Origin: a virus
Direction: 5' to 3' (one strand)
Virus record (IMG/VR): IMGVR_UViG_3300037137_001341
Span: 32,001-96,000 of that record
DNA length: 64,000 nucleotides
Position numbers and translations under genes: made by a program. Shown here piece after piece: positions 26,880 to 56,330 of this stretch; position 1 is the stretch's first letter, and the number at the start of each line of letters is the position of its first letter. The notes beneath the pieces are model-generated. The model was given only the letters and a program-made list of their open reading frames with translations. It searched no databases and was not told where the DNA came from.

Positions 26880-27188
26880 TCAACGGCGTGCAGCGGCCAT
26901 CAGGGCAGAAAGTCCGAAGATAGCCACCGAGCCGAGGACCAGGGGCTTCCACCCGACGTCCTTGACAGCGTCCCGGACCATGAACCCGAAGAGCCCGAGC
27001 CCGCCGAGGAGGGCGAACGTGCCAGCCTCCTGGTTCTTCGGCAAGGCGTCCGTCTTGAAGAGGTCCCCATCACGGATCGCGCGGCCCGCCTCGTAGGCGA
27101 TGAGCCCCCCACCGACGATGCCGGCGAACGCGAGGACAGCCGTCTGGGTCTGTACCGTCGTCTCCGGGAGAAGCTCGTAGTCGCTCAT
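26880..27188 (-). CDS. Small three-TM membrane protein
   Basis: Three hydrophobic segments; ATGA coupling. Confidence 0.7.
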   Translation of the reverse strand: MSDYELLPETTVQTQTAVLAFAGIVGGGLIAYEAGRAIRDGDLFKTDALPKNQEAGTFALLGGLGLFGFMVRDAVKDVGWKPLVLGSVAIFGLSALMAAARR

Positions 27189-29383
27189 GGGGAGCAGCGC
27201 ACTTCGGCCCACTGGATCTCTCCCACGCACCTGAGCGCGGGGGCTCCGCCTGGGAGCACGACACTGAACGTGATCTCGTGGGCCGCCGTCGCTACCGCCG
27301 TCATCGTGACTCCGAGCGCCCCAGGATCTAGCCCACCGGACGCTACGGATGCGTCCACCACGGCGCCTCCCTCGTCATGTGCCAGGACGTCGAACCAGAT
27401 CGACTGCCGTTGCGTGGATGGCGCCGCACTCTCCGCGACGATCAGCATGACGCGGAAGGTGTACGCGAAGTGGTCCCGCGTCAGGAACGGCTTCACCGTG
27501 AAGTTGGTGAGGATCCCGACTACGCTCGGGCCGGCGGGAGTGAGCCGTCCCATAACCACGGTGCCCGACTGACAGCCGCCGTCCGCGCCGAAGCGCGGAC
27601 CGCCACCGAGTACATGCCCGGACTCTTGCATCGAGTAGCCGTCCTCTCCGCCCGCATGGGAAGCGAACGCGGTCGACGTGCTGTTCTGGCCCTGCGCGTG
27701 GGAGTCGTTACCGCTTGCCGTGCACGAGATACCCTCGGCGTGCGAGTTACTGCCGCTTGCCAGTGCGCTCGCGCCCTCGGCGTGGCTCGCGATGCCCTGC
27801 GCAACGCTGTGGAATCCCTCGGCATGTGACGTAGGACCGGACGCGACGCTCGTGTCTCCTTCGGCATGAGAGTTCAGACCACTGGCGATCGTTGTGATGC
27901 CTTCCGCGTGGGCATTATCCCCACTTGCAAGAGCGCTGTTCCCTTCGGCGTGCGAACGATCCCCCTGAGCGTTGCATGCGTCGCCTTCGGCGTGAGAAGC
28001 GAAACCGCTAGCAGATCCGCTGCTGCCCTCTACGTGCGAGTTCACGCCAAGGCTCTGTCCGGCCGATCCCTCGGCATGTGAGTTCGCTCCCTGCGCCAGT
28101 GTTCCTACACCCTCGGAGTGAGAGTTCCCTCCCGTCGCCTGCGTCGCGTTGCCCTCGGCGTGAGACACCTGACCGAGCGCTTGCGTCGAGCTTCCTTCGG
28201 AGTGCGAGAAGTCTCCTACGGCATGCGTCGAGAGCCCTTCGGCATGTGCCGAGTCACCGTTCGCCAGAGTCGCACTGCCCTCGGCGTGGGATGATGGCCC
28301 GTTCGCATGCGCCTGGAGGCCCTCGGAGTGAGACTGCAGGCCGTTGGCCTGCGTCTGCCTTCCTTCGGCATGAGCGAAGTTCGCCGTCGCCTGCGACTGG
28401 ACGCCTTCAGCGTGCGATGCCTCACCGCTCGCGACCGTCGAGTGCCCCTCAGAATGTGACGAGAGCCCGGATGCCAGTGATGCCGTTCCCTCGGCATGTG
28501 ACGCGACCCCAGATGCTGTCGTGAAGTTCGGGCCTTCGCCCTGCCCCTCGGCGTGGCTGTTCGTCCCGGTCGCTCTCGTAAGGTGGTTCTCCGCGTGAGA
28601 TCGGGTGCCGCTCGCGAGGGTCTGCTCGCCCTCCGCGTGAGAGTGGTCCCCGCTCGCCGTACAGGACGCTCCCTCGGCGTGTGACACGTCTCCGCTGGCC
28701 GTGCTGTCGGCCCCCTCGGCGTGCGAGTGCCTGCCGGTGGCATCACAGGACACGCCCTCGGCGTGCGAGTTCTCGCCGCTGGCGATCGATAGTTGCCCTT
28801 CGGCATGTGACCGCAGACCGCTCGCCTGGGTCTGAGTTCCCTCGCAGTGGGACGCCTCGCCGCTCGCCGTCGAGTTGAGGCCCGTGGCGAAACTCGCGTG
28901 CCCGCTGGCCGTCGTCCCGTCGTTCTCGGCACATGCGTACAGACCGGTAATCGTGACGTTGTTCTTGACGCAGCCCTCCACGATCGGGCCGGCTATAAGC
29001 GTCCCGAAGATCACCAGCCCCATCACTCGTTGGCCCTTCGCCGCTCCGGCGATCTGGACATCGAGGATTGGGTCCGTGATTGTGAGCGCCTCGATCTGCT
29101 TCTGCAGATCCTCGGCAGTCGCTGCGAGCAGGATCCGCAGGTTGTCGATGTTCGCCCCGCCGACCATATTGGACCGGTCAGCGCCCTCGACCTCCAGGAA
29201 GAACATGTGCCCGTCGCCCGCGCCCGTGAGCGTGATGGATGCGACGGTCGAGTTCGGGAGAGCCTCAAACAGAGGAACTATTTTTGCGAGTATCTGCGCC
29301 CCCATGTCTTCCGCTGTTGCAGACTGAATTACCGCGCTTATCGCATTGGCGGTACCACCGAGGATTGTTCCGTATCTCGACAT
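27185..29383 (-). CDS. YadA-head-like beta-roll repeat protein (candidate spike/receptor-binding protein)
   Basis: ~28 tandem 14-aa xASGxxSHAEGxxx repeats; no signal peptide or barrel anchor. Confidence 0.8.
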   Translation of the reverse strand: MSRYGTILGGTANAISAVIQSATAEDMGAQILAKIVPLFEALPNSTVASITLTGAGDGHMFFLEVEGADRSNMVGGANIDNLRILLAATAEDLQKQIEALTITDPILDVQIAGAAKGQRVMGLVIFGTLIAGPIVEGCVKNNVTITGLYACAENDGTTASGHASFATGLNSTASGEASHCEGTQTQASGLRSHAEGQLSIASGENSHAEGVSCDATGRHSHAEGADSTASGDVSHAEGASCTASGDHSHAEGEQTLASGTRSHAENHLTRATGTNSHAEGQGEGPNFTTASGVASHAEGTASLASGLSSHSEGHSTVASGEASHAEGVQSQATANFAHAEGRQTQANGLQSHSEGLQAHANGPSSHAEGSATLANGDSAHAEGLSTHAVGDFSHSEGSSTQALGQVSHAEGNATQATGGNSHSEGVGTLAQGANSHAEGSAGQSLGVNSHVEGSSGSASGFASHAEGDACNAQGDRSHAEGNSALASGDNAHAEGITTIASGLNSHAEGDTSVASGPTSHAEGFHSVAQGIASHAEGASALASGSNSHAEGISCTASGNDSHAQGQNSTSTAFASHAGGEDGYSMQESGHVLGGGPRFGADGGCQSGTVVMGRLTPAGPSVVGILTNFTVKPFLTRDHFAYTFRVMLIVAESAAPSTQRQSIWFDVLAHDEGGAVVDASVASGGLDPGALGVTMTAVATAAHEITFSVVLPGGAPALRCVGEIQWAEVRCSP

Positions 29384-29395
29384 GTTCGTTCTCCT

Positions 29396-29671
29396 TCAGT
29401 CCGCAAATAGCTTCGTTCGCTTCTGGATCTGCTTCACGGCGATGCCCGCGATGAGCGAGACCACCACAGCCGTCGTGACCGAGATGAACAGTGGGCGACG
29501 GTACCAGACAACCTTGCCGTCGCGACACCCGTCACATGACGGATGATCGTCTGGGCCTACGCAGACGACGCAATCGCCGTCCTTCAGATACGTGCACTCG
29601 GGGCACGTGACCAGGGCCATGCGCGTTTGCACCTGGCCGGTCGCAGTCGGGTAACCCACGTAGCCGATCAT
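29396..29671 (-). CDS. Cys-rich protein with C-terminal TM anchor
   Basis: CPEC, CVVC, CDGC; TM then basic tail. Confidence 0.7.
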   Translation of the reverse strand: MIGYVGYPTATGQVQTRMALVTCPECTYLKDGDCVVCVGPDDHPSCDGCRDGKVVWYRRPLFISVTTAVVVSLIAGIAVKQIQKRTKLFAD

Positions 29672-29674
29672 GGG

Positions 29675-29998
29675 TCAGTCCTCGTCGTCGTCGTCCTCGT
29701 GACGCTCGCACCACTCGATGAAGCCGGCGATGGCGTCGAGGATGGTCTCGTAGCCGTCGTCGATCCGCAGGTGCTTCCTGAACTCTTCGCCTGACTTCAG
29801 GTCGACCTCTCGGATCTCGTAGCCACACGTCCTCGACTCGTCGTTCGCTCCAGCGCCCTTCTCCCAGAAGAACGTGACGGCGACGTCCTCGCGACCGAGA
29901 CAATCCTCGGCGCGCTCCGTCATGGCCTCCAGAAGCTCCGTGCCGACCTCGGCGTCTTCGAGGTAGTCCTCTTGGGGCAGGTGGTTGTTCGCGCGCAT
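29675..29998 (-). CDS. Acidic hypothetical protein
   Basis: Starts MRAN; D/E-rich. Confidence 0.65.
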   Translation of the reverse strand: MRANNHLPQEDYLEDAEVGTELLEAMTERAEDCLGREDVAVTFFWEKGAGANDESRTCGYEIREVDLKSGEEFRKHLRIDDGYETILDAIAGFIEWCERHEDDDDED

Positions 29999-30004
29999 GG
30001 ACGC

Positions 30005-30661
30005 CTACCGGCCTCTCGCTCGCGATTCGTGCTGCGCCTTCAGCTTCAGCCTGTACCGCTCTCCGGCTGCGAGCCTACTCTGATGCTTCTCGTAGGCACT
30101 CGTGTAGTCCGACGGTGAACGGGGGCGGTGCTTGTGCTGATGCGACTCCCACGCCATGTACTCGGCCGGTGAGCGGTGCATGTTCTCCTCGTACCCCTCC
30201 CCAGGCACGTAGTACTCGTACTCGGCGATGCCGCGCTTCCCGAGCCTTCGCTCTCCCTTGCGCGACTTGCGCCTCCCTCGCCGTTGCCGATGCCAGTCGT
30301 CGCCTGGCTTCCGCGGCGCTTCCCTGCCACGCTGGTGCCGCTTGTTCGGCGTGAGCTTCTTCTGCCCCCACCAGGCGTACCCGAACAGGAGCCCGAGCCC
30401 GATGCCGAGCGCAACACCGCCAGCGACCACGCCCCACGACGTCTCCTTGTACGTCGCCTCCGGGTCGGCCCCGAGCGCTGCCCAGTGCGGCAGGAAGTCA
30501 TCCTCCCCCGGGATGCTCTGCCCGAGCCCGCCGATGCCAACGCGCATGGGGCCCGCACGCAGCGGGTTGATGCCCCAGCCCGGCACCGGCGCGTTCTGCC
30601 AGCCAGGCGTCGCGACGGCAAGCTCGTGGTAGTCGGCGTCAGGCACGTTCCAGTACGACAT
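30005..30661 (-). CDS. Membrane protein with GLG tag and basic tail
   Basis: IGGLGQ, ALGAD, TM, then LTPN/YEEN and Arg-rich segment. Confidence 0.72.
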   Translation of the reverse strand: MSYWNVPDADYHELAVATPGWQNAPVPGWGINPLRAGPMRVGIGGLGQSIPGEDDFLPHWAALGADPEATYKETSWGVVAGGVALGIGLGLLFGYAWWGQKKLTPNKRHQRGREAPRKPGDDWHRQRRGRRKSRKGERRLGKRGIAEYEYYVPGEGYEENMHRSPAEYMAWESHQHKHRPRSPSDYTSAYEKHQSRLAAGERYRLKLKAQHESRARGR

Positions 30662-30800
30662 CGTCTTCTCCTTCGTCCGACGCCATCGCGGGCACCGGGA
30701 TCGTGTCCCGTTCGTTGTCGACGACCACGCCCCACTCCCAGGGGGAGGAGGCAAAGTCTTCCTGCGGCTCCTGGTTCTCCTGGTCGGGGTCCGGCGGCAT
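30639..30800 (-). CDS. Small acidic protein
   Basis: Preceded by GTGACT-17-TAGACT-7-ATG (30808..30836). Confidence 0.45.
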   Translation of the reverse strand: MPPDPDQENQEPQEDFASSPWEWGVVVDNERDTIPVPAMASDEGEDDVVLERA

Positions 30801-30832
30801 GTGCCCCAGTCTACATGCCCCCTGGGCGCGAG

Positions 30833-31069
30833 TCACCTGCGGCCCCGCATCCACCAGGCTCCCAGGCCCACGGCCATGACCACCGCGGCGGAGATGACCA
30901 CGGCGCCCCGCATGACGGCCATGTTGATGGCCGGCTGGGCCTGGTCCGAGGCGTCGTTGACCAGGGCCTCCATGGGCAGCGTGATCTCCGTGTCCTTCCC
31001 CCAGGGGAGGGGCAGGTCCACGAGGTACGTGATCGTCTTGCCGGGGCCGGCACCCATCGCTCGGTACAT
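30833..31069 (-). CDS. C-anchored membrane protein, paralog of 31311..31697
   Basis: GAGPG..PWGKDTEI; TM + RGRR. Confidence 0.75.
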   Translation of the reverse strand: MYRAMGAGPGKTITYLVDLPLPWGKDTEITLPMEALVNDASDQAQPAINMAVMRGAVVISAAVVMAVGLGAWWMRGRR

Positions 31070-31072
31070 GAG

Positions 31073-31306
31073 TCATTCCTCCGGTGGCGCGCCCGGAGGC
31101 ACCCACCACGCTTCGACATCACAGTCGACGTCGCGCCATCGCTGCTTGGTCACGCAGCCTCTGAGGAAGGCGTCCGTCTTCATGTGGGAGTCGAAGTACC
31201 CCTCCGCCTCCTCGCGCGTGTCACCCGCGAACACGTGTCTCACGATCGGATAGTCGTGCCCGCCGCCAGGCTCGTAGATGTCGACGACGAGACGCCACGC
31301 ATGCAC
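31073..31306 (-). CDS. Small hypothetical protein
   Basis: Fills gap in operon; protein-like. Confidence 0.6.
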   Translation of the reverse strand: MHAWRLVVDIYEPGGGHDYPIVRHVFAGDTREEAEGYFDSHMKTDAFLRGCVTKQRWRDVDCDVEAWWVPPGAPPEE

Positions 31307-31310
31307 CGCG

Positions 31311-31697
31311 CTACACGCCCTTCTTGATCCACCAGGCAGCGAGGCCGACCGAGAGGACCACCATGCCGGCGATGCCGAGCGCGGCCTTGATCGCGTCGTC
31401 CTTGACCATGTCGACCTTGGCGAACGTGATCTCCATCTGCTTCGCGATCTCGGGACGGATCACCTCGTCCATCACCTTCTTCACGAGCTTCGGCCCGTAG
31501 AGGTTCGCCTCGTCCTCCATGTCGTTGATGAGCTTCGTCTCCAGCGCGTTGATGTCCGGCGTGAGCGAAGCCCACGTGTCGGCGACCATCGCGTCGACCG
31601 GCACGACGATCTCCGTGTCCTTGCCCCACGGAAACGGCGCGTCGACCTTGTAGGTCTTCGTGGGACCGGGGCCTGCGCCGACGCCGTGGTAGCTCAC
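31311..31697 (-). CDS. C-anchored membrane protein
   Basis: YHGVGAGPG..PWGKDTEI; TM + KK. Confidence 0.75.
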   Translation of the reverse strand: MSYHGVGAGPGPTKTYKVDAPFPWGKDTEIVVPVDAMVADTWASLTPDINALETKLINDMEDEANLYGPKLVKKVMDEVIRPEIAKQMEITFAKVDMVKDDAIKAALGIAGMVVLSVGLAAWWIKKGV

Positions 31698-32335
31698 GCT
31701 GCCGCCTTCTGCTCGTACTCCCGCCGCAAGACCTCGTAGGCCACGTTGAACTTCTTCAGTCGCTCGACGTTCAATGCGCGCTGCCGATCGCTCTGCGGCC
31801 GGTCGGCGTTGTACTTCAACACGAGCTTCCGGTACTGCCGCTTGATCTGCTCCCAGTTCGAGCGCGGCGGCATCTTCAGCGCCTTGAGCGCCATCGCCAC
31901 GGACATGCCGCCGGGAGCCTGCTGCGCCGGAGGCGGCGGGGATTCCTGACGGCCGTTGGTCCATCCCTCGGCGCGCTTCCTGGCCTTCGTCTCCCCGATG
32001 CAGACCTCGCAGATCGCGTCCGCCATGTAGTCCACGCGGGAATGTGCCAGGCAGCACGGGCGCCCGCACACGTCGCACTTCACGACCGCGTACGACCGGC
32101 AGGCTCGGGGTCTCCCGGTGCTCACGTCGGGCGAGGCGCAGGGCGTGGGGGACATGACGGCGAACGTCCACTTCGAGAGCGCGTTCTTCGTGAGATGCGA
32201 GCCCCACTCCTTCAGCTGTTCGGCGACCTCCTGAGCGGCGGTCGAGCTAGCGCCAAGGTTCTGCGCCATGACGGACGCGAACGTCTCCCACGGGATCTCT
32301 GCGGTGGCCCGCTTGAGGCGCTCGAAGAGATCCAT
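31694..32335 (-). CDS. Zn-finger plus degenerate J-domain protein
   Basis: CDVC..CLAH..CEVC; IKRQYRKLVLKYNADR..FNVAYEVL (HPD replaced by NAD). Confidence 0.75.
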   Translation of the reverse strand: MDLFERLKRATAEIPWETFASVMAQNLGASSTAAQEVAEQLKEWGSHLTKNALSKWTFAVMSPTPCASPDVSTGRPRACRSYAVVKCDVCGRPCCLAHSRVDYMADAICEVCIGETKARKRAEGWTNGRQESPPPPAQQAPGGMSVAMALKALKMPPRSNWEQIKRQYRKLVLKYNADRPQSDRQRALNVERLKKFNVAYEVLRREYEQKAAA

Positions 32336-32342
32336 CTGGCGC

Positions 32343-33038
32343 CTACGCCGCGGCAGCCGGCCGCGTCGCGTAGAAGGCGCCGAGACCGAGCACGGCCCCG
32401 ATGCCCACGCCGGCCGCCATGCCCATCGGCTTGGTCTTCTTCCACAGGACGGCACCGAGGAGCCCCGCGACCGCGCCGCCACCGGCGTACATCGCGAGGT
32501 TCTTCTTGTCGTCATCCGTGAGCGGAGCCGCCGAGCCGAGACCGCGCAGATGACCACTGTGAACGACGGGGCGACGGGGAGGCCGCCGGCGCACCCTGCC
32601 GAGCCCGGCCGTAGCGCCTGCGTTGTACCAGGCGATCAGCGCCTTCTGGAAGCCGGCGTTCATGTGTGACCAGTCGTAGTCCGACAGAGACTCTGTCACA
32701 TCGACGAGCATCATGTCGCACGAGTCCAGCTGGTTGAACCGACCGAGCCCGTGCGCCTGACCCTTGTACGCAGACACGGTACACACGGAGATCCACCGTC
32801 CTGTATCCGTGTCGGTGTACCCACCGGTGTACCAGTGGTAGAGCGTGCTGCGGAATGTGTCCGGCAGCGCTTCCCACTCGCTGTCGTCCATGGCTTCCAC
32901 TGCCGCGACGAGAGCCGCGTCCGTCCCGTCGCTCTTGTTGTACTGGCCGACGCCGCTGAAGTACTCGCCCATGCCCTTCATCCCGGGCGGCTTGTACGCG
33001 AAAAACTCACCCATTCCTGCTGGTGCTTGCTTGTACAT
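32343..33038 (-). CDS. Membrane protein with multiple G-h-G tags
   Basis: GMGEFF, GMGEYF, GVGQ, GLG x3; two C-terminal TM. Confidence 0.75.
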   Translation of the reverse strand: MYKQAPAGMGEFFAYKPPGMKGMGEYFSGVGQYNKSDGTDAALVAAVEAMDDSEWEALPDTFRSTLYHWYTGGYTDTDTGRWISVCTVSAYKGQAHGLGRFNQLDSCDMMLVDVTESLSDYDWSHMNAGFQKALIAWYNAGATAGLGRVRRRPPRRPVVHSGHLRGLGSAAPLTDDDKKNLAMYAGGGAVAGLLGAVLWKKTKPMGMAAGVGIGAVLGLGAFYATRPAAAA

Positions 33039-33043
33039 TGGAG

Positions 33044-34093
33044 TTACCTCTTCCTTCGTAGAACGAGTGCGATCCCGAGCAGCGCCACAGCGCCGAGCCC
33101 ATACATCGCCATGGTGCTCATCATCGGCGCGCTCGCGCCCCCGGTGTCCACCCGCGTGCCCTTCGTCTTGTCGGCCAGCGACAAGTACGGAGGCAGCACC
33201 GGGCCGCCGCCGCCAGCGAACCAGGCGTACAGGTTCGGCATCGACTTCTTCACGAAGTCCGGGCCCCCGCCCGCAGTGGTCGGAGCCGCCATGAGCCCGA
33301 CCATGATCCCGATCCCAGTGGCGTTCGGGTACGTCTGCGCTCCCGCGGACGCGCTCACGGTCTTGCCGCTCATCACCGGGGACGCGGATACGATGTACTG
33401 CCAGAGCACGCTCGCCGCCGGCTCCCAGATCCCGCTGGTGTAGAAGTCGGGCGTGTAGGTCGCCTGCGCCGTCGTACTGAGCGCGAAGCCGCCGCTCGAC
33501 AGCGCCATCAGCGACTTCACCTCGGCGAGCGTTGCCGCGTCACCGAGATCGAGCGTTATCCCGGTCACCGCAGCCGGCGCGCCTGCGCCGAGGCTTCCGT
33601 CATTGAACGCCCGCAGCGGGCCGAACGTGTTCATGCCCTCGTAGTGCGGCCCAAGGATCCCCTGGTTGTAGACCGAGATGGGCGTGCCACCGGCCTCGTC
33701 CGTATCTCCGAGCGAGCCATCGTTGTATGACCGCAGCGGTCCCGGCATCGAGGCGTCTGCCGGTGAGCCACCGACCACGCCGTCGGCGTACGCGAAGAGC
33801 GATCCAGCGGAGGCGTCACCGAGCCCGAGCGATCCGTCCGAGTACGCGAACAGCGGGCCAGGCATCGCGGACTCGTCCGGCGAGCCGCCGAACACGCCGT
33901 CCGAGTACGCCTGCAACGGCCCCTGCCCGAGCCCGAGCGATCCGTCCGAGTACGCGAACAACGGGCCAGGCATCTCGGCGCTTGCCGCCGAGCCCCCGAC
34001 GACACCGTCGGCATATGCCTGCAGCGGGCCCTGACCCAAGCCGCCGGCGCCCTGGGTGATCTTGGTGCTTCCGAAATATGCGCCTAGCGGCAT
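33044..34093 (-). CDS. Repeat-containing C-anchored membrane protein
   Basis: GPLxAYxDG repeats; TM + RRKR; GAGGAACACATG start. Confidence 0.78.
   Translation of the reverse strand: MPLGAYFGSTKITQGAGGLGQGPLQAYADGVVGGSAASAEMPGPLFAYSDGSLGLGQGPLQAYSDGVFGGSPDESAMPGPLFAYSDGSLGLGDASAGSLFAYADGVVGGSPADASMPGPLRSYNDGSLGDTDEAGGTPISVYNQGILGPHYEGMNTFGPLRAFNDGSLGAGAPAAVTGITLDLGDAATLAEVKSLMALSSGGFALSTTAQATYTPDFYTSGIWEPAASVLWQYIVSASPVMSGKTVSASAGAQTYPNATGIGIMVGLMAAPTTAGGGPDFVKKSMPNLYAWFAGGGGPVLPPYLSLADKTKGTRVDTGGASAPMMSTMAMYGLGAVALLGIALVLRRKR
33590..34035 (-). repeat. Intragenic tandem repeat, ~108-bp unit
   Basis: gagcccgagcgatccgtccgagtacgcgaaca at 33821 and 33929. Confidence 0.75.
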
Positions 34094-34122
34094 GTGTTCC
34101 TCGTTCCTGAGCCTACTCCGGG

Positions 34123-34350
34123 TCAGTCCCCTACGAAAGCCTCGATGCGGGGCCGCAGAAAGTACATGGCGATCCCGCCGGCTACGACGCCGACCCCGAG
34201 CCAGGCCCAGCCGGGCACACCGGCGCCGATCTCGTCCGCCCCGAGCCCAACGGCCCTCCCGAGGATCCCCATGGGGCCGCCCACGTTGTCCATCGTGGGC
34301 CCGAGCGCCTCGGCGCCAGCCGCAAGAGACCTCTTCTGCTGATCGGTCAT
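34123..34350 (-). CDS. Small C-anchored membrane protein
   Basis: VGLGADE; TM. Confidence 0.7.
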   Translation of the reverse strand: MTDQQKRSLAAGAEALGPTMDNVGGPMGILGRAVGLGADEIGAGVPGWAWLGVGVVAGGIAMYFLRPRIEAFVGD

Positions 34351-34571
34351 CGGGACCTCGGCCTCACCGGATCACGCAGCACGAAATACCCGAGCACGAT
34401 CGCCACCCCGAGGAGCCCGAGCGCCATCCGGTGCGCCAGCTGCACGGTCTCCGGCGACGGCTCCGTTGGAGCATCGCCCATCGCGCCCGAGCAGCCGCAG
34501 CCGCCCACGCCGACGAGCTTGCCGGACATGTCCCCGTAGGGAGGGACACCGGCGATGGCGACCAGATTCAT
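34347..34571 (-). CDS. Small C-anchored membrane protein
   Basis: GVGGCGCSGAMGDA; TM + basic tail. Confidence 0.68.
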   Translation of the reverse strand: MNLVAIAGVPPYGDMSGKLVGVGGCGCSGAMGDAPTEPSPETVQLAHRMALGLLGVAIVLGYFVLRDPVRPRSR

Positions 34572-34573
34572 GT

Positions 34574-35491: not shown

Positions 35492-35495
35492 CGGA

Positions 35496-36050: not shown

Positions 36051-36056
36051 GGCGCA

Positions 36057-39277: not shown

Positions 39278-39290
39278 GCGTGCCTCCGCT

Positions 39291-43996: not shown

Positions 43997-44045
43997 GGAA
44001 AAGCGTTTCTCCTGGGTTTTCCCCGAGAGTATGCTCCAGCTGGCC

Positions 44046-50183: not shown

Positions 50184-50743
50184 CCCGCGATGCCGTCCTT
50201 CCCAATCGTGAGCGAGCCGCCGGTCAGGAGCATGTGCACCCCCTCGGGGGTGTACACGAACAGAAACGTCTCCCCTGTCTCTGGGTGCTTCGCCGAAGCG
50301 AGCATCGCCCGTGAGATTCGGACCTCGTAGAAACCGACGTTCTTCGGGAGCACAAGCTCCCCGCCATCGTCCTCTTCGTAGAGGTGCACCTGGACGCCGA
50401 GTAGCGGTCCGAGCCGCGTGAAGTGCTTCGGCATGGGCTCGTCGAACTGCACGACGGGGCCCACGACCTCGATGCGGCTCGACGGGGAGCCCCACTCGCG
50501 AAGAAAGCCTGGCGCCGCGTACACGGTGCGTGAACCCTCTGCCACGTGCTTGTAGTCCTCGTGCTCCGCGAGGTTCTTCTGCCACTTGTTCGAGCGGTAC
50601 ATCTCGGCGCCGCCGACACCGATCTCCTGCATCCGAGATGGCCAGGTGAACGGCATCTCGATCTCGCGCTCAGACTCCCGCGCGTAGAACGTCTTGAACG
50701 TCTTCAGCGCCTGCGGCTTAGTATCGACGACGCGGAGGGCCAT
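50180..50743 (-). CDS. Soluble hypothetical protein
   Basis: YRSNKW..YKH; ends GGSLTIGKDGIAG; TAGAAT 8 nt upstream. Confidence 0.7.
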   Translation of the reverse strand: MALRVVDTKPQALKTFKTFYARESEREIEMPFTWPSRMQEIGVGGAEMYRSNKWQKNLAEHEDYKHVAEGSRTVYAAPGFLREWGSPSSRIEVVGPVVQFDEPMPKHFTRLGPLLGVQVHLYEEDDGGELVLPKNVGFYEVRISRAMLASAKHPETGETFLFVYTPEGVHMLLTGGSLTIGKDGIAG

Positions 50744-50754
50744 GACGGAGGATT

Positions 50755-51105
50755 CTACCTCTTCTTCGCGACGTACCAGAGAAGCACTGCACCGGCGACT
50801 CCAGCGACCACCCAGAGTACTGTTGACGGCGGCGCTCCGTCGAGCCCGGCGAGCGAGCGCGTGCGGCGCACGAGGCGCGCCTCGTCCACCGGAGCGATGA
50901 GGCCGACAGCTACGTCGCCCTCGCCGACGATCTTGGAGCCCGGCGGGACCGGGCGGCCCGCCTCGATCGAGGGGACGCCGATCTTCGTGGCGGCCTGAAG
51001 GACAGGGGACGGGAGATCGTCGTTGATGTTGAAGCTCCCCGGTGCCTGCAGGTACTCGTACCCGCCGGTGTCCGGCTTCCATCGCGAGTAGATCGTGGTG
51101 CTCAC
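50755..51105 (-). CDS. C-anchored membrane protein
   Basis: SLAGLDG; TM + KKR. Confidence 0.7.
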   Translation of the reverse strand: MSTTIYSRWKPDTGGYEYLQAPGSFNINDDLPSPVLQAATKIGVPSIEAGRPVPPGSKIVGEGDVAVGLIAPVDEARLVRRTRSLAGLDGAPPSTVLWVVAGVAGAVLLWYVAKKR

Positions 51106-52007
51106 GCCGCCGCTCCTCGCCGCCGAGACGCGAGCATCATGGGGACGACGATGCTCGCCACGTAGAGCCCGAGCCCGATCGCGGCGACCCAAGCGAGCGG
51201 CTGCAGCAGGGTCCCCATGAAGCCAAGGAGATCCGGGTTCCCATTCTTCTGGATGCTCTGCATCGCGGCGACGCAGTTGCGCATGTCATCCGCGGTGCCG
51301 GTCTTGCTGAGCTTGTCGCAGTACGCGATGACCTTGTCGGTGATCGGGGAGCCGATCTGCCAGACGTACACGAGGTAGCAGACCCCGAGGACAAGTACGA
51401 TGCCGAGCGCCGCGAGCGCCCAACCGCCGAGCACCAGCTGGATTGCCCCGACACCAGCTGCCGGCGCCTCCGGCGTCGTCTTGAACTGATCAAGGTGCCC
51501 GTTCTTTTCCAGGTCCACGAACGTCTGCCACGTCTGCACAAGCGAGTTCGCGTGCGCCATGACGTCGCCCGGCGTGACCTTGCCGGCCCGCATCGCGTTC
51601 TCCATGACGCCGTCGTAGTGGAGGTACGCGCCGTTCATGGACGAGGCCGCGAGCGTCGCGAGCGCGTCCACCGCGAGGGAGCGAGGGAAGTGCACCGACG
51701 CCTCCCAGTCGCCAGCCTTCGTCGCCTGCCACACGTCGGCGCCCGTCTGGTTGATGAGCGCCATCAGCTGCGTCATCGCATGCCGAGCATCGCCCGCCTG
51801 GATGGTCCGGTACTTGTCCCGGAACTCCTGGCTGAGCTTGCCGAGCACGCCGAGGAACTTGGCGCCCTCCTGGAGCATGAGATCCTGGTACGCGCTGTCG
51901 AAGCCGTTCTCGTCGATGCCATGACCCTTCGCGATCAGGCCGTCCCATGGGATCCCGGGCGGCCCCACGAGGTCGTCGTACATCCCGGCGAGCTTCTCGA
52001 TGAACAT
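51102..52007 (-). CDS. Membrane protein (two TM)
   Basis: AGVGA; TM-Cys pair-TM + RRR. Confidence 0.72.
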   Translation of the reverse strand: MFIEKLAGMYDDLVGPPGIPWDGLIAKGHGIDENGFDSAYQDLMLQEGAKFLGVLGKLSQEFRDKYRTIQAGDARHAMTQLMALINQTGADVWQATKAGDWEASVHFPRSLAVDALATLAASSMNGAYLHYDGVMENAMRAGKVTPGDVMAHANSLVQTWQTFVDLEKNGHLDQFKTTPEAPAAGVGAIQLVLGGWALAALGIVLVLGVCYLVYVWQIGSPITDKVIAYCDKLSKTGTADDMRNCVAAMQSIQKNGNPDLLGFMGTLLQPLAWVAAIGLGLYVASIVVPMMLASRRRGAAA

Positions 52008-52013
52008 GTGCGT

Positions 52014-52385
52014 TCAGACCTTTGCTGCGCGTTTTCTGTCCGTCCGCCAGGCCATGTACGCGAAGATGCTGAAGCCGGCAGCAACCGTGGCCCAGGCCCA
52101 CTGAGGCACCTGATCGATTGCTGTTCGGAGGTCGCGCCCGAAGTTGCTCGGCTTCGGACCGCCAGTGAGGTAGGCCGCCCAGCCCTGCGTGAAGAGATCG
52201 GGCGGCGAGTAGTACCCGAGGTTCACCAGCGTCGCCGGGTCCGGGTGCCCGTTCGGATCCATCCCGTACGTCGCGTTCCGCGCCGTCTGCTGGTACGCGA
52301 GGATCGCGCCATCCGTTGCGCTATCCCAGTGCCCCGTTTGAGGGACGCCGAGATTCTGCTGAACCTTCTGGATCGCCGTGGGCAT
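52014..52385 (-). CDS. Peptidoglycan-binding-domain protein with C-terminal TM
   Basis: IQKVQQNLG..TGHWDSATDGAILAYQQ..G.PDPAT. Confidence 0.72.
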   Translation of the reverse strand: MPTAIQKVQQNLGVPQTGHWDSATDGAILAYQQTARNATYGMDPNGHPDPATLVNLGYYSPPDLFTQGWAAYLTGGPKPSNFGRDLRTAIDQVPQWAWATVAAGFSIFAYMAWRTDRKRAAKV

Positions 52386-52391
52386 GGACGC

Positions 52392-52790
52392 TCACCTCTT
52401 CTTGGAAGCGCGGTAGATGAGGGCTCCACCGACAGCGACGGCCGCGATGGCCCCGCCGTAGAGCATCCAGTTCGTGCCGCCGGTGCCGCCGAACATGCCT
52501 GCGCTGGTGCCAGGTTTCTTCGTCCCCGTGTCGCCGTACACGACCACCTCGGGAAGCGTGATCACGCCGATGCTGTTGCCCGAGAGGCTCCCGTTGCCGA
52601 CCCCGTTCATGCCGTCCGGGCTGAGCCCCACCTGCTTCGGCAGAATGGCGCGGAGCCTCGCGTTCAGGAACGAGATGTCCCTGTACTGGTGCTGCCCAGC
52701 GTACCCGAGCCCTGCCATCGGAGGACGAGCCTGCTGCCACTCCGCGTTCAGCAGAGCGTAATCCTCGTAGGCGATTGTTCCGTAGGCCAT
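52392..52790 (-). CDS. C-anchored membrane protein
   Basis: MAGLGY, MNGVGN; TM + KKR. Confidence 0.7.
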   Translation of the reverse strand: MAYGTIAYEDYALLNAEWQQARPPMAGLGYAGQHQYRDISFLNARLRAILPKQVGLSPDGMNGVGNGSLSGNSIGVITLPEVVVYGDTGTKKPGTSAGMFGGTGGTNWMLYGGAIAAVAVGGALIYRASKKR

Positions 52791-52794
52791 CGGC

Positions 52795-53553
52795 TCACTT
52801 CCTCTTCTTCGACATGTACAGGCCGGCACCGACCGCGGCGACGACGAAACCACCGAGCATCCAGGCCGTGGCGCTGGAGGACTTGCCCGTCGTCGGCCCG
52901 ACGTGCGGAGCATCGGCGATCTTCGCCGGGAGCACCATGTTCGGGCAATCCAGATCGAAGCGGATGCTTGTACATCCAGCCGGCAGCGAGGGGAGCACCG
53001 GATGGAAGCTGATGCCAAGCTCATGGAGCTTGAACATCGCTCCGCAGGTCGCGCTGTCGTACACACCGGTCTGCGGGATCGCGTTGTAGCCGGCGGCGGT
53101 CAGCGCAGTGCTCAGCGCATCCTGCAGATCATCCGCGATATTGCTCTTCTGGTTCAACGCGAGGAAGCACGGATCGGCCGCCGGCCCGGCTGGGGGCGAG
53201 GTCCCACCACTAGAGGGCGCGACCGGCGCGGCGGTCGAGTCCGACGGGGCCTGAGAAGGAGCAGGCGCAGCCGCGACCCACGACGCCGGCAACTTCACGA
53301 CGTCCCCGACCTTCGCGCAGAACCCGTACTGCGTGCACTTGTGCGCCGGGTTCGCCGTGGCAAGTTCGGTCCACCGGTTGCCGTTGCCCGTGATCGCCTT
53401 CGCGACGGACGTGCCGGTGTCCCCGCTCCTCCAGGTGTACGTCGGCGCCGATGACAGACCGAGCCCCCCGAAGCCCATGTTCGAGCCGTCGAACAGGCCG
53501 CCGCCGTAGCCGCCGCCACCGAAGATGCCTTCTCGCGTGTGAACCTGGATCAT
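52795..53553 (-). CDS. LysM plus PG-binding-like C-anchored protein
   Basis: YTWRSGDT..VAK..WTELATANP..VGDVVKLP; LQDAL..TGVYDSAT; TM + KKRK. Confidence 0.75.
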   Translation of the reverse strand: MIQVHTREGIFGGGGYGGGLFDGSNMGFGGLGLSSAPTYTWRSGDTGTSVAKAITGNGNRWTELATANPAHKCTQYGFCAKVGDVVKLPASWVAAAPAPSQAPSDSTAAPVAPSSGGTSPPAGPAADPCFLALNQKSNIADDLQDALSTALTAAGYNAIPQTGVYDSATCGAMFKLHELGISFHPVLPSLPAGCTSIRFDLDCPNMVLPAKIADAPHVGPTTGKSSSATAWMLGGFVVAAVGAGLYMSKKRK

Positions 53554-53555
53554 TG

Positions 53556-53831
53556 CTATCTCCTGACGAGACAAAAACCGCCGATGACGCCGATTGCACC
53601 GAGGAGCCATGGCGTCCACGGCGCGTAGGTCTCCGCAGTCGCCGCCGCCTGACCGAGTCCGTTGGCAGGGACGAAGCCGCGCCTGAGCATCCCCGGCTGG
53701 AGCCCCATCGTGCGCGGCGGGATCATGCCCAGGCCCTGCGTCGACCAGTTCGACGGAACGTGGATGACGTCACGGAAGATGGCCGCGCCCTCTTCGCGCT
53801 CCTGCAGACCCTTTCCATCTCGACGGTACAT
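53556..53831 (-). CDS. Small C-anchored protein
   Basis: QGLGM, NGLGQ; TM + RR. Confidence 0.68.
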   Translation of the reverse strand: MYRRDGKGLQEREEGAAIFRDVIHVPSNWSTQGLGMIPPRTMGLQPGMLRRGFVPANGLGQAAATAETYAPWTPWLLGAIGVIGGFCLVRR

Positions 53832-53834
53832 GAC

Positions 53835-54155
53835 CTAGTAGCTGCCTTTGTAGCCGGAGAAGTGGAGGTACGCATACGTCGCAAGCCCCAGGGCCGCGAT
53901 GAACAGCACCGTCTTCCCGACGGACGGGCCAGCCGTGTCGTCCCCAAGCCCTTGCATCCCCGCTTCGAGCCCGAAGTCGTTCGGTCGCTCCGCCCACGGG
54001 AGCCCGAACTGCGGGCGCGTGTAGATCGGCCCGTGGAACCGCGTCGGGTACGAGTGCAGCATCACGGTGTACGGGTTCGGCACGCCAGGGGGCACCGGAC
54101 CGTCGTACGTGTTCAGCGACTGGCCTAAACCAGCCATGCAGGGAACGCACGCCAT
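53835..54155 (-). CDS. Small C-anchored protein
   Basis: MAGLGQ, MQGLGD; TM. Confidence 0.72.
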   Translation of the reverse strand: MACVPCMAGLGQSLNTYDGPVPPGVPNPYTVMLHSYPTRFHGPIYTRPQFGLPWAERPNDFGLEAGMQGLGDDTAGPSVGKTVLFIAALGLATYAYLHFSGYKGSY

Positions 54156-54158
54156 CGT

Positions 54159-54554
54159 TCAGCCCTTCCTCTTGTTCGCGACGATGCCCATGACGCCGAG
54201 ACCGAGCACCCCGGTGAAGAGCCCGACCGGCACACCGATCCAGCCCCACGTGGTCGCATCCTGCCGAGACGGCGCAATCGCCTTGCCCGCCTGGTAGCTC
54301 AGCGCGCCTGCGACGCCGAGGATCGCCAGCATCCAGGCCATGTCCGCGCTCGTCATCTTCGTGTCCACCGGGACGCCAGTCCCTGTGTCAGCCGGGGCAT
54401 CCCCGAGCCCACGTATCGCAGCCACCACGGGGCTCAGCGCGAAGAACCGTGACTTGCCGACCGCGCCGGTGCCGGCGGCTGCCTGCGTCATGGCGCCGGC
54501 AGGGACGTCCTGCGAGAAGACGTCGAACGTGGGCAAAATGCTTTGGCTGTCCAT
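54159..54554 (-). CDS. Membrane protein
   Basis: IRGLGD; TM hairpin + KRK. Confidence 0.72.
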   Translation of the reverse strand: MDSQSILPTFDVFSQDVPAGAMTQAAAGTGAVGKSRFFALSPVVAAIRGLGDAPADTGTGVPVDTKMTSADMAWMLAILGVAGALSYQAGKAIAPSRQDATTWGWIGVPVGLFTGVLGLGVMGIVANKRKG

Positions 54555-54561: not shown

Positions 54562-55257
54562 TCACTTCTTCATCAGGGTCGCGGCCACGATGCCGACCGC
54601 GACGCCGACGATGGCGAATCCCGCGAAGATGCCGAACTTGGAGCCGGAATCCGTCGCCGGAGCATCGGCACCGAGCCCGTTCACTGGCCACGCCTCCTCG
54701 TTCGGGATCCAGGTCCCGCCGGGATCGGGATGCGTGACGTTCTGCGGACTCACGCCGGGAGGAAGCTCCCAGAGCAGCTGCCTCTCGCGCACGGTGTCCA
54801 GCTGGCTCTGATCGATCGCGACCGCGCCGCCGGGCACGTACATGACGGGCTGGCCAGTGGTCGCGTCGATCACCTCCGACGGCTGGTAGTCGATCGAGTT
54901 CACCAAGTAACCCGGCATCGAAGCGTGGTCCGCGAACACGCCGTAATCCGGGTGGATGTTCCCCTGCGTGCCGTGCGGATCGAACACGCCATTGCCTTGT
55001 ACATCGTCCGCTGCTGCGAGCGTGTTTAGCTCGTTCGCGTAATCCTTGATTCCGATGTCTGCGGTCATGCCGTTGTCTCCCAGGCCCGCGATGTTGCGCC
55101 CACGCGCGCCGCGGTACATGTCGTACGAAGGGTTCATGCCGCTCGGACGCATGTCCGGCGGCCCGATCTCGTCGATGCTCGGAAGGTCGCCGCCGAACAT
55201 CGGCTGGCTCGCGTACACCGGGTACGGGGGACGCAGGGCTCGAAGGACGTTGCTCAT
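54562..55257 (-). CDS. C-anchored membrane protein
   Basis: IAGLGD, VNGLGA; TM + KK. Confidence 0.75.
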   Translation of the reverse strand: MSNVLRALRPPYPVYASQPMFGGDLPSIDEIGPPDMRPSGMNPSYDMYRGARGRNIAGLGDNGMTADIGIKDYANELNTLAAADDVQGNGVFDPHGTQGNIHPDYGVFADHASMPGYLVNSIDYQPSEVIDATTGQPVMYVPGGAVAIDQSQLDTVRERQLLWELPPGVSPQNVTHPDPGGTWIPNEEAWPVNGLGADAPATDSGSKFGIFAGFAIVGVAVGIVAATLMKK

Positions 55258-55844
55258 GTGATGCTCCTTGGCGCTCCCGGATCTTCATCGAGGCTCACCG
55301 TGTAAAAAGTCGTCACACGATCGAGCATGCCGCGCTCGTCCGTGCCCCCGACGGGGTCACAAACTACCCATTCCCCGCTTCGCGGTTCCTTCACGCGCGT
55401 GAACACGTGGCTGTACTGGCCGGCCTCACCGAAGCCGACGACCACGAACTCGGCGACGCGGCCAAGCTGCAACGCCATCGTCGCGATGATCGTCGCCATG
55501 TCATCGCAATCACCGATCGCACTTCCGTGCGCGGCTACTTCCTCGACGAGCCTCTGTGCGTCCTTCACGAGTTCGGTGTGCAGGGGGTCGTTGACGTAAT
55601 GAACGCGCTCCGTCACCCAGTACCGCACCGCCAGGATCTCGCCGAGGTAGTCCTTCGGCTGCACCTGTCGAACGATCTGCTCGACCATGCTCCGCACGAG
55701 CATGCTCTTCTCGCCCCGTTCGCCATGCGTCGCGCTCACCATGGCCCGGAGTGTGTCCGGGTGACCATGAAAAGCGCTCAATGAGTGTGGCGGGTTAGCG
55801 GAGAGCAAGGGTATCCCGAGCCGGGGGTCGGGAGCGCCCTGCAC
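55254..55844 (-). CDS. Transglutaminase-fold cysteine protease candidate
   Basis: YVNDP, GDCDD, SHVF, WVVCDP (Cys-His-Asp triad). Confidence 0.82.
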   Translation of the reverse strand: MQGAPDPRLGIPLLSANPPHSLSAFHGHPDTLRAMVSATHGERGEKSMLVRSMVEQIVRQVQPKDYLGEILAVRYWVTERVHYVNDPLHTELVKDAQRLVEEVAAHGSAIGDCDDMATIIATMALQLGRVAEFVVVGFGEAGQYSHVFTRVKEPRSGEWVVCDPVGGTDERGMLDRVTTFYTVSLDEDPGAPRSIT

Positions 55845-55849
55845 TCGGA

Positions 55850-55878
55850 AGCCTACCGGCGCCAGGCTCGTAACTCAA
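55850..55878 (-). promoter_or_regulatory. Sigma70-type promoter (leaderless)
   Basis: TTGAGT-17-TAGGCT-5-GTG. Confidence 0.6.
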
Positions 55879-55916
55879 GCGCGGGATATGTCCTGGGGTT
55901 TTCCGGCTACTTCGTC

Positions 55917-56123
55917 TCAGCCCCGCGGCTCCGACAGCATCCATGCGCGCCCCTCGGCGCGCCGCATCGCGACCACGCGGGCCGTGCCCTTATCGAGCAG
56001 CACGCTCGCGATGGCGAGCGCGGCGAAGATGCTGGTCCCGAGCCACCAAACCTTTCTGTCCTCCTCGCTCGTGTCAGCGCCGATGCCGATGGAGGAGCAG
56101 CAGGTTCCGATTTGGCGGTACAT
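55917..56123 (-). CDS. Small membrane protein
   Basis: IGIGAD; TM. Confidence 0.65.
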   Translation of the reverse strand: MYRQIGTCCSSIGIGADTSEEDRKVWWLGTSIFAALAIASVLLDKGTARVVAMRRAEGRAWMLSEPRG

Positions 56124-56126
56124 GAT

Positions 56127-56330
56127 CTACCGGCTCCCCCGAAGCCCGAGCGGGTCCTTCGCGTCAATGGCGAAGAACGCGACCGCGAGGCCCACGAGGA
56201 GGCCGCCTGCGACCCAGCTGGTGCCCGAACCCATCTGCGCCGTGTCGGCGCCGATCCCAGACATGTGTCTGCGCCCGTGCGGCCTGACCAGTGGCGCGCC
56301 GCCGTAGCCACCTGCGACGCTGTGGTACAT
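56127..56330 (-). CDS. Small membrane protein
   Basis: MSGIGAD; TM. Confidence 0.68.
   Translation of the reverse strand: MYHSVAGGYGGAPLVRPHGRRHMSGIGADTAQMGSGTSWVAGGLLVGLAVAFFAIDAKDPLGLRGSR

Follow-up and report, generated by a model that had tools for sequence, protein, structure and literature searches.

What kind of particle would be built from a cluster of about 29 kb in which membrane proteins abound and the head and tail genes of phages are not recognised? The question is raised by positions 27185–56330 of the window, i.e. the whole stretch of 64,000 nucleotides analysed here (positions 32,001 to 96,000 of the IMG/VR record IMGVR_UViG_3300037137_001341). To our knowledge, the tailless bacterial dsDNA viruses with a membrane that have been described all combine a genome of ~10–20 kb with a double jelly-roll capsid protein and an FtsK/HerA-type packaging ATPase, and no tailless bacterial virus larger than ~30 kb is known. 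A sequence-only reading of the window had proposed a large tailless, membrane-containing bacterial virus of a Varidnaviria-like lineage. Our analysis suggests that this stretch of 29 kb most likely holds the core genes for virion morphogenesis, that is, for building the particle, of an uncultured bacterial virus.

The virus genome and its relatives

The virus record with the window comprises 116,237 bp at a CheckV completeness of 85%, and this 116-kb contig represents an incomplete copy of a genome of about 135 kb. Complete relatives span 136–179 kb with terminal repeats and have the block in common, with the gene order kept. The sizes of the record and of these relatives support the proposal of a genome of more than 64 kb. 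They belong to a widespread metagenomic clade with genomes of 110–180 kb, and homologues of a 259-aa capsid candidate from the block number in the hundreds, on contigs reaching 182 kb. Though common in metagenomes, the group is missing from GenBank phage records and from the searchable literature: neither Megablast against GenBank phages and PLSDB plasmids, with 25 kb of the block as query, nor tblastn with the 259-aa protein against GenBank phages gave a match, and a literature search found no description of this virus group.

The stretch is present in five sediment-metagenome runs, with at least 45% of the sampled words in four of the five, and no RNA run is among the sequencing runs listed as containing it. 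The virus probably has a dsDNA genome and a lytic lifestyle. Bacterial-type genes on these genomes, including peptidoglycan hydrolases, RecT/YqaJ, and DnaB with a DnaC-like loader, point to a bacterium as the host. A search for tRNAs found none. The MAG bins of relatives (Pirellulales twice, Pseudomonadota, Pseudomonadales, and Methanomicrobiales) were rejected as a guide to the host, since they are mutually inconsistent, and were treated as mis-binning.

Organisation of the gene block

GC3- and codon-based gene calling placed 43 genes in 27185–56330, 40 of them on the minus strand, with 28,461 of the 29,146 nt coding. Whereas the cluster of mostly co-oriented genes was thus read correctly, its limits were not, as the conserved block reaches from ~26880 to 62800. 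Its left edge is a small conserved protein of 110 aa (26880–27212, minus strand), homologues of which adjoin the spike gene in the relatives G001 and G003. To the right lies a conserved 880-aa protein (56371–59013, minus strand) whose middle is a long charged coiled coil and which also has a Pro/Gln-rich stretch. It is 47% identical over its full length to its counterparts in G001 and G003, belongs to no Pfam or PHROG family, and might be a scaffold or size-determining protein. Eight further conserved genes (59010–62803, minus strand) extend the syntenic block past the first right border, in the same order at 84.5–87.5 kb in G001 and 71–74 kb in G003. The three plus-strand genes at 44031–46137, encoding a small membrane protein, a glycosyltransferase (Glyco_trans_1_3), and a metallophosphoesterase (Pfam 2e-84 and 1.5e-12), have no homologues in G001 or G003 and, judged by this comparison, are an accessory insert outside the conserved module.

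The hydropathy census detected a hydrophobic segment in 31 of the 43 proteins at a lenient threshold and in 25 at a strict one, and in 26 proteins no more than 30 residues follow the last such segment. The initial estimate of about 30 small transmembrane proteins was therefore roughly right, with about 25–30 anchored proteins, the anchor being C-terminal in most. In three cases, the genes at 27185, 38369, and 55254, the segment is probably a strand buried inside a soluble protein. The first array, at 29396–37936 on the minus strand, consists of 16 genes, mostly for small or medium proteins with an N-terminal ectodomain and a C-terminal anchor according to the census and motif counts; many of their products bear a G-(L/V/I/M/F)-G motif near the N-terminus, and most have same-order homologues in G001 and G003. 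The array matched no Pfam or PHROG family apart from a DnaJ (J-domain) protein with a Cys-rich middle (31694–32335, minus strand; Pfam DnaJ 7e-07, above cut-off), which is conserved in G001 and G003 and is possibly an assembly co-chaperone. The second array (46126–54554, minus strand) has 14 genes, mostly for C-terminally anchored proteins, and includes a 716-aa protein with two transmembrane segments (48033–50183, minus strand); it is syntenic with 93–101 kb of G001 and 80–88 kb of G003.

Beyond it are a 231-aa tail-anchored protein (54562–55257, minus strand; 64–69% identity to G001 and G003), with two G-L/I-G motifs conserved at aligned positions in relatives, and a 162-aa Transglutaminase-core protein of the papain-like Cys protease fold (55254–55742, minus strand; Pfam Transglut_core 2.4e-06, above cut-off). 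With ~72% identity to relatives, the latter is the second most conserved gene, and it is a candidate maturation protease that might act on the G-x-G motifs. Two small membrane proteins of 68 and 67 aa (55917–56330, minus strand) have a G-I-G-A-D-T motif ahead of each anchor.

The spike recognised in the earlier reading is substantiated as a 732-aa fibre protein (27185–29383, minus strand; Pfam YadA_head 7e-06, phrog_25468 1e-72), in which an N-terminal adaptor domain of ~125 aa is followed by many SHAEG-type (YadA-head-like) repeats in a row and, at the C-terminus, by a beta domain. The N-terminus of a second fibre outside the window (C1:10106-11212) is 36% identical to that of the spike (E 8e-13), and in G001 the same adaptor domain heads 5–6 fibres. 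Support for the suggested cell-wall-binding proteins is modest, consisting of a PG_binding_1 match below the Pfam cut-off at 52014–52385 and a match of residues 35–100 of the protein at 52795–53553 to an endolysin PHROG (8e-07).

By composition and charge, the basic DNA-binding protein of the earlier reading corresponds to an 837-aa polybasic membrane protein (41385–43898, minus strand). Its residues 1–515 contain 34.5% Arg+Lys with a net charge of +154 and might act as a DNA condenser; hydrophobic segments follow at 524–601, and the C-terminal 236 aa are neutral and Gly/Ala-rich, with repeated G-V/L-G-E-Y/F-F motifs. The same architecture recurs in 15 relatives (676–905 aa, net charge +107 to +197), and in each of them the gene immediately precedes that of the 259-aa protein. 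The basic part of the 837-aa gene contains a 114-bp tandem duplication at 99% identity.

Candidate capsid proteins

The three adjacent soluble beta-rich proteins previously noticed at 38369–41229 are real and among the most conserved genes of the genome. The candidate for the major capsid protein is the 259-aa protein (40450–41229, minus strand), the most conserved of all, which was modelled as one beta-sandwich over residues 3–259, a predicted single jelly roll with long loops. An extensive head-to-tail self-interface is predicted for it, an interface that does not give the size of the oligomer. The second candidate, of 369 aa (39291–40400, minus strand), was modelled at low confidence (pLDDT 56) as a coiled coil (~46–106) and one beta-sandwich, the predicted jelly-roll domain at 127–366. 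The jelly-roll folds sought in this region were thus predicted for these two proteins, as single rather than double jelly rolls and with moderate to low model confidence. The third protein, of 302 aa (38369–39277, minus strand), ~71% identical to its G001 and G003 homologues and in a fixed place after the other two genes in 21 relatives, is a candidate vertex or minor capsid protein by its conservation and position.

Among the best fold matches of the two models are VP4 of Sulfolobus polyhedral virus 1 (SPV1) and capsid proteins of haloarchaeal membrane viruses, all at modest Z-scores of at most 8.0, a range that according to the tool may reflect merely a common arrangement. The SPV1 capsid chains (PDB 6oj0) are the best or near-best match for both, and the VIA fold matches include HHIV-2, HCIV-1, and P23-77 VP17. 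Fibre knobs, cement proteins, and carbohydrate-binding modules, which are also jelly rolls, occur in the same hit lists. Foldseek with the 259-aa model returned nothing from the PDB at E≤0.001 and only weak capsid-like rows from BFVD. Profile searches of all three proteins against PDB sequences gave noise or coiled-coil matches only, hhalign found no relation among the three families, and the ESM Atlas returned only unnamed clusters for the 302-aa protein. A promoter and terminator scan around the capsid genes gave no signal above shuffles. A conserved beta-rich protein of 288 aa is also encoded outside the window.

Search for packaging and tail genes

We searched five genomes in six frames, namely the present contig and four complete relatives. 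Terminase_6N and TerL_ATPase found no match at E≤1 while the controls matched, and neither did Phage_capsid or Phage_portal at the same threshold; TerL is the most conserved phage protein. Further capsid and portal families were covered by PHROGs on the called proteins, among which no head, tail, or packaging family was found. Neither Pfam nor PHROGs identified a terminase, portal, sheath, tube, or tape-measure protein, in agreement with the first inspection of the block, and these searches of the contig and the complete relatives found no HK97 capsid or terminase gene in the flanks either. Since 15% of the contig is missing, the absence of hallmark genes rests on the relatives.

An A32/FtsK-HerA packaging ATPase had been expected in the flanks; this expectation failed, as FtsK_SpoIIIE and Pox_A32 gave nothing above cut-off in six frames of the five genomes. 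The only conserved P-loop proteins are the DnaB-like helicase and its loader. Weak FtsK/A32 hits traced to the Walker A motif of this loader, an IstB/DnaC-like protein encoded next to the helicase, a conserved 455-aa protein at 23864–25231 proved to be a glycosyltransferase, and G001 genes at 56–60 kb, which are found in G003 and missing here, were glycosyl- or methyltransferases. A highly divergent ATPase lacking the Walker A motif may still be encoded.

A proposed particle and its alternatives

We consider the following particle somewhat more probable than its opposite. The polybasic N-terminal 515 residues of the 837-aa protein would condense the genome, and the hydrophobic segments of this protein would anchor it in a lipid membrane together with ~25 tail-anchored proteins of the block. 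Around the membrane, the self-associating 259-aa and the 369-aa jelly-roll proteins, perhaps with the 302-aa protein, would form the shell, and fibres with a common N-terminal adaptor domain would serve attachment. Because no packaging ATPase of a known type is encoded, the genome might be enclosed by co-assembly with the basic protein instead of being pumped in. Proteolytic maturation or sorting of the virion proteins is suggested by the Cys protease of transglutaminase fold and by the conserved G-(L/V/I/M/F)-G motif that most of them carry. From gene content, conservation, synteny, the absence of hallmark genes, predicted folds, and the predicted self-interface we infer the membrane, the icosahedral shell, motor-less packaging, the role of each protein, and the bacterial host. 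The proposal of a large tailless, membrane-containing virus is borne out indirectly: tail and head families are absent and membrane-anchored proteins dominate the block, so that the presence of a membrane and the lack of a tail would both follow from gene content. The membrane proteins could instead function in the host membrane.

The Varidnaviria-like label fared worse. [quoted passage not shown] With two jelly-roll genes side by side, the block recalls the two-MCP arrangement of Halopanivirales, the VIA matches include HHIV-2, HCIV-1, and P23-77 VP17, and an abundance of small membrane proteins is likewise typical of PRD1 and PM2. We nevertheless find this reading quite unlikely, as both modelled proteins are single jelly rolls, the FtsK and A32 families were not found in six frames of five genomes, the only conserved P-loop proteins serve replication, and the candidate MCP genes adjoin genes for polybasic and membrane proteins, not an ATPase gene as in known members; moreover, the nearest analogue, SPV1, lies with the other Portogloboviridae outside Varidnaviria. 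The dominance of membrane proteins, a giant DNA-condensing protein that lessens the need for a rigid shell, and jelly-roll hits that include TNF-like trimers and the PRD1 P5 spike would also suit an enveloped or pleomorphic virion, a membrane-wrapped nucleoprotein with jelly rolls as matrix or spike components. This arrangement is unlikely given that the most conserved protein has an extensive predicted self-interface, that two proteins find their best fold matches among the shell proteins of icosahedral viruses with a membrane, and that dedicated fibre genes are already present.

That this is a tailed phage (Caudoviricetes) with capsid, portal, terminase, and tail genes too divergent to be recognised appears very improbable: four terminase, portal, and capsid Pfam families gave nothing at E≤1 in five genomes, no PHROG family or P-loop protein offers a candidate, and the most conserved structural proteins were modelled as jelly rolls instead of HK97 folds. 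Genome size, the RecT/YqaJ/DnaB genes, endolysins, and multiple fibres with a common adaptor are all frequent in tailed phages, and the ESM Atlas labels neighbouring clusters automatically as 'Uroviricota'. We give hardly any credence to a non-viral origin, in which the block of a large plasmid-like or integrative element would encode a cell-surface, secretion, or transfer apparatus. Many membrane proteins, wall-binding or wall-degrading domains, adhesin-like repeats, and the binning of relatives into MAGs of several phyla are compatible with it, but those bins contradict one another, and relaxase, VirB4, and coupling-protein ATPases are lacking. The contigs are of viral size, the conserved genome size comes with terminal repeats, capsid-like folds accompany a polybasic DNA condenser and lysis enzymes, and IMG/VR and CheckV classify the record as viral.

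Comparison with known viruses

Compared with the particle proposed above, from genes and models the closest analogue would be the Portogloboviridae. We know of no packaging ATPase in SPV1, and its layering equals the proposed one, with shell proteins of the single jelly-roll type (VP4/VP10), subcapsomer proteins, membrane proteins, a lipid layer, and a core of DNA and protein; it also has many short membrane-protein genes. SPV1 encodes glycosyltransferase and methyltransferase genes, no packaging ATPase is among the nine annotated ORFs of its profile, and the Portogloboviridae have a ~20-kb circular genome and a hyperthermophilic archaeal host (PMC8459092). The present virus differs by its size (116–179 kb against 20 kb), by bacterial-type genes with peptidoglycan hydrolases and an occurrence in sediment metagenomes, by its huge, membrane-anchored, polybasic DNA-binding protein, and by its own helicase, recombination, and nucleotide-metabolism genes; profile searches against PDB sequences detected no similarity to SPV1 proteins. 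The design of shell, membrane, and DNA condensation seems to have been described so far only in a small archaeal virus.

Tentatively, and with less than even confidence, we suggest that these 110–180 kb bacterial viruses are an undescribed lineage at realm level, in which a single jelly-roll shell would cover a protein-rich membrane, a membrane-anchored polybasic protein would enclose more than 100 kb of DNA motor-free, and a G-x-G signal with a transglutaminase-fold protease would mature or sort the virion proteins. If so, the clade would break both rules, that on the size, capsid, and ATPase of tailless bacterial viruses and that on tails above ~30 kb, and would be the first bacterial counterpart of the archaeal Portogloboviridae. 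The SPV1-type design would then be an ancient and scalable way of virus building and no archaeal oddity, which raises the question of how a virus lacking an NTPase would enclose more than 100 kb of DNA. With this group, virus discovery based on hallmark genes has a sizeable blind spot.

Halopanivirales/Helvetiavirae (HHIV-2, HCIV-1, SH1, and the Thermus phage P23-77) have 16–31-kb genomes with an A32-like ATPase next to the capsid genes, an ATPase not found here. Like the proposed virus, the Tectiviridae and Corticoviridae (PRD1, PM2) and other bacterial viruses with double jelly rolls are tailless, contain an inner membrane with many small proteins encoded by the virus, and have adaptor domains in their vertex spikes and wall hydrolases associated with the virion. 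They differ in their genomes of 10–20 kb, in the double jelly roll of their capsid protein, and in having an ATPase of the FtsK/HerA type. Adenovirus (pVII/Mu/pV plus adenain) provides a functional analogy only: it has a eukaryotic host, a double jelly-roll hexon, and the IVa2 packaging ATPase, with no sequence relationship. Its Arg-rich proteins condense the genome, and its Cys protease cleaves many virion precursors at (M/I/L)XGG-X or (M/I/L)XGX-G, to which cleavage at the G-x-G motifs here might be analogous.

Genome, relatives and conservation

The window corresponds to bases 32001-96000 of one 116,237-bp contig with a G+C content of 66%, which is catalogued in IMG/VR as a linear viral sequence and rated 85% complete by CheckV. 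Because shadow frames swamp raw ORF lists at this G+C content, genes were called by a codon and GC3 score with a ribosome-binding-site bonus. This procedure gave 199 genes, and most gene starts are preceded by Shine-Dalgarno motifs. Twenty related contigs, the longest of 182 kb, are listed in IMG/VR. Three of them (136,226, 138,414, and 179,401 bp) received a rating of 100% complete and have direct terminal repeats, which measure 123 and 127 bp in the two complete relatives that were read, as circular assemblies would give. A TnpB/IS605-type (Cas12f-like) gene lies within one of the complete relatives, G001 (L032:5204-7012, minus strand), and genomes of this group therefore host insertion sequences.

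In a proteome comparison with two complete relatives, G001 and G003, homologues in both were found for 77 of the 199 contig genes. Between 26.9 and 62.8 kb, 37 of 53 genes have such homologues, with gene order kept. The sequence-only reading had placed a mostly co-oriented cluster of particle-building genes at 27185-56330, and we found there 43 genes, 40 of them on the minus strand, with 28,461 of 29,146 nt coding; the conserved block is wider, from about 26880 to 62800. A plus-strand insert at 44031-46137 separates the gene of a polybasic protein (41385-43898) from a second array of membrane proteins. Its three accessory genes, for a small membrane protein, a Glyco_trans_1_3 glycosyltransferase, and a metallophosphoesterase, are missing in G001 and G003. 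The gene of a 259-aa protein (40450-41229) shows the highest conservation in the genome (~80% identity to G001/G003), followed by a transglutaminase-core protein (72%) and then by the 302-aa (38369-39277) and 369-aa (39291-40400) proteins (about 71%). The order polybasic, 259-aa, 369-aa, and 302-aa protein is fixed in 15–21 relatives, the polybasic gene always lying directly upstream of the 259-aa gene.

Membrane proteins and the polybasic protein of the block

The many membrane proteins proposed for the block were borne out, as a lenient hydropathy threshold detected a hydrophobic segment in 31 of the 43 proteins and a strict threshold in 25. The last such segment of 26 block proteins stops no more than 30 residues short of the C-terminus. 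The typical block protein consists of an N-terminal ectodomain and a C-terminal anchor. The spike (27185-29383) was likewise recovered, with YadA-head-like repeats and a match to phrog_25468 (1e-72). Support for cell-wall binding was modest, comprising a PG_binding_1 match below the Pfam cut-off at 52014-52385 and an endolysin-PHROG segment (8e-07) at 52795-53553. The block also encodes the transglutaminase-core protein, which has a Cys protease fold, and a J-domain protein.

With transmembrane segments removed, the motif G-(L/V/I/M/F)-G occurs 51 times in the block versus 22 ± 4.8 in composition-preserving shuffles (about 2.3-fold), whereas it is not enriched outside the block (32 versus 38.8 expected). 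Many of the sites (within 29396-56330) are close to the N-terminus and precede the ectodomain. Although overall identity is about 50%, 25 of 50 motif sites are at aligned positions in both relatives, and all 45 sequences compared for the 259-aa protein keep the motif residue Gly24. The motif may serve as a signal for cleavage or sorting. A 108-bp tandem repeat at 33819-34042 (2.1 copies, 83% match), located in a 349-aa anchored protein, encodes a G-L-G motif in each unit.

The basic protein noticed earlier has 837 residues, and its residues 1–515 contain 34.5% Arg+Lys with a net charge of +154. Hydrophobic segments follow the polybasic part at 524–601, and a neutral 236-residue tail comes last. 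The same succession of polybasic part, membrane segments, and neutral tail bearing G-V/L-G-E-Y/F-F repeats is seen in 15 relatives, whose homologues have 676–905 residues and net charges of +107 to +197. By our own arithmetic, neutralising most of the DNA charge in a genome of 135 kb at +154 per copy would take about a thousand copies, if not more. The polybasic part of the gene contains a 114-bp tandem duplication at 42540-42767 (2.0 copies, 99% match). The near identity of the copies suggests that the duplication is recent, and the length of the basic region therefore seems free to vary, as the lengths of the relatives do.

Capsid candidates

The three soluble beta-rich proteins reported at 38369-41229 are real. 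The three families showed no mutual relation by hhalign and no sequence match to any solved protein. The 259-aa protein has 677 homologues at E≤0.001, of which the best 120 are 60–89% identical, all unnamed, and located on metagenomic contigs no longer than 134 kb. A distant relative (L017:8650-9843, plus strand) encodes a 397-aa paralogue with 43% identity over residues 1–187, directly upstream of the normal 259-aa copy.

AlphaFold2 with a 45-sequence alignment modeled the 259-aa protein as a single beta-sandwich of eight strands and long loops (pLDDT 72.7, pTM 0.75). A Foldseek search of the PDB with this model gave nothing significant. Fold matches obtained for the capsid candidates, with the three values for each in brackets, included HHIV-2 (7.1, 5.5, 118), PBCV-1 (6.8, 4.7, 139), HCIV-1 (6.7, 4.0, 129), SPV1 (6.4, 3.8, 137), FLiP (5.6, 4.5, 127), and P23-77 VP17 (5.6, 4.5, 117), all scores lying within the range where, by the tool's own warning, a match may reflect a common arrangement alone. 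Foldseek against BFVD returned SPV1 VP4 (E 9.7e-4, probability 1.00). Given that score range, we read these matches as probably indicating a single jelly roll of the viral-capsid type, and not as homology.

Predicted in three copies, the 259-aa protein scored 0.86 versus 0.00 for the best of three controls. Among proteins of solved structure, 20 of 30 one-chain pairs and 1 of 23 single chains reach this value; these counts are only a rough guide here because the alignment was our own and the prediction had three copies. Contact agreement among the runs was at least 92% and partner pLDDT at least 83. The predicted head-to-tail interface orders the loop 159–191 that is disordered in the monomer.

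Hallmark and packaging genes

Six-frame profile searches of the contig and four complete relatives, in which control genomes gave positive matches, detected no Terminase_6N, TerL_ATPase, Phage_portal, or HK97 Phage_capsid at E≤1. Pfam and PHROGs together covered essentially every protein of at least 250 aa and many smaller ones, returning families of replication, recombination, nucleotide metabolism, glycosyltransferases, methyltransferases, and lysis, and no head, tail, or packaging family. In the same six-frame searches, FtsK_SpoIIIE and Pox_A32 gave sub-threshold Walker A matches only. We rejected these matches as a packaging ATPase, since they fall in a 200–250-aa IstB/AAA_16-like helicase loader adjoining a DnaB-like helicase. 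A census with a relaxed Walker A pattern, covering every called protein of three genomes, left the helicase and its loader as the only conserved P-loop proteins. From the negative profile, family, and census results together, we conclude that the tailed-phage hallmarks are absent; the sequence-only reading had recognised none in the cluster, and the packaging ATPase that it expected in the flanks is missing from the contig and also from the complete genomes.

Discussion

On computational grounds, we lean modestly towards a tailless virion in which, from the outside in, a jelly-roll shell would cover a protein-rich membrane and a nucleoprotein core, and which would assemble without a packaging motor. 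Sulfolobus polyhedral virus 1 (SPV1, Portogloboviridae) has a jelly-roll shell, membrane, and nucleoprotein core (PMC8459092). It is not known to encode a packaging ATPase. The virus described here, for which the same layering is proposed, differs in its predicted bacterial host and in having a genome six- to nine-fold larger.

A particle that is enveloped or pleomorphic and has no lattice would also accommodate the anchored proteins and, given a jelly-roll candidate predicted to self-associate, seems unlikely. True Varidnaviria, with a double jelly roll and an unrecognised ATPase, would fit the capsid-type fold; the single sandwich and the census of P-loop proteins make this quite unlikely. 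A tailed phage diverged beyond recognition would have to have lost all resemblance to terminase, portal, and HK97 capsid profiles, and we regard it as very improbable. Least probable of all is a non-viral element, which would have to carry the capsid candidates, the polybasic protein, and lysis genes.

Non-tailed membrane phages known from the literature searched are small Varidnaviria. The group was not found in that literature or in the GenBank phage collection, and, as far as can be told, this computational finding is new to the literature.

Genes outside the block and host

The conserved left arm of the contig (L001:3147-16804, contig 3–17 kb, outside the window) holds a second structural-looking and lysis set. 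Its fibres share the N-terminal adaptor domain of the spike, of which the left arm also has three stand-alone copies; G001 has 5–6 such fibres. The set further includes a 288-aa beta-rich ORFan (5399-6265), an SGNH/GDSL esterase, and wall hydrolases matching Amidase_2 and SLT above the Pfam cut-off and M23 and M15 below it. Together with the RecT, YqaJ, and DnaB encoded in the genome, this set points to a putative lytic virus of a peptidoglycan-bearing bacterium. MAGs containing relatives (L040-L044) are labelled Pirellulales (twice), Pseudomonadota, Pseudomonadales, and Methanomicrobiales, which are mutually inconsistent, and one binned relative is of whole-virus size (122,730 bp). Their placement is probably a binning error, and Pirellulales is a weak host lead.

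A 1424-aa protein (15962-20236, plus strand) has a tyrosine-recombinase catalytic domain (Phage_integrase 1e-17, residues 461–530). The protein greatly exceeds ordinary integrases in size and is conserved from end to end in complete relatives (51–55% identity). Two core proteins without Pfam or functional PHROG match (L002:4836-6581 and L003:7963-9006, both minus strand) are paralogues (30% identity, E 1e-31) sharing a Gly-rich loop followed by a V-V-K-L motif, which resembles a protein-kinase ATP site. The early region encodes a MoxR-type AAA ATPase and vWA protein pair (7200-9673, plus strand) that is not conserved in G001 or G003, and G001 has a Mg-chelatase-like ATPase in its place.
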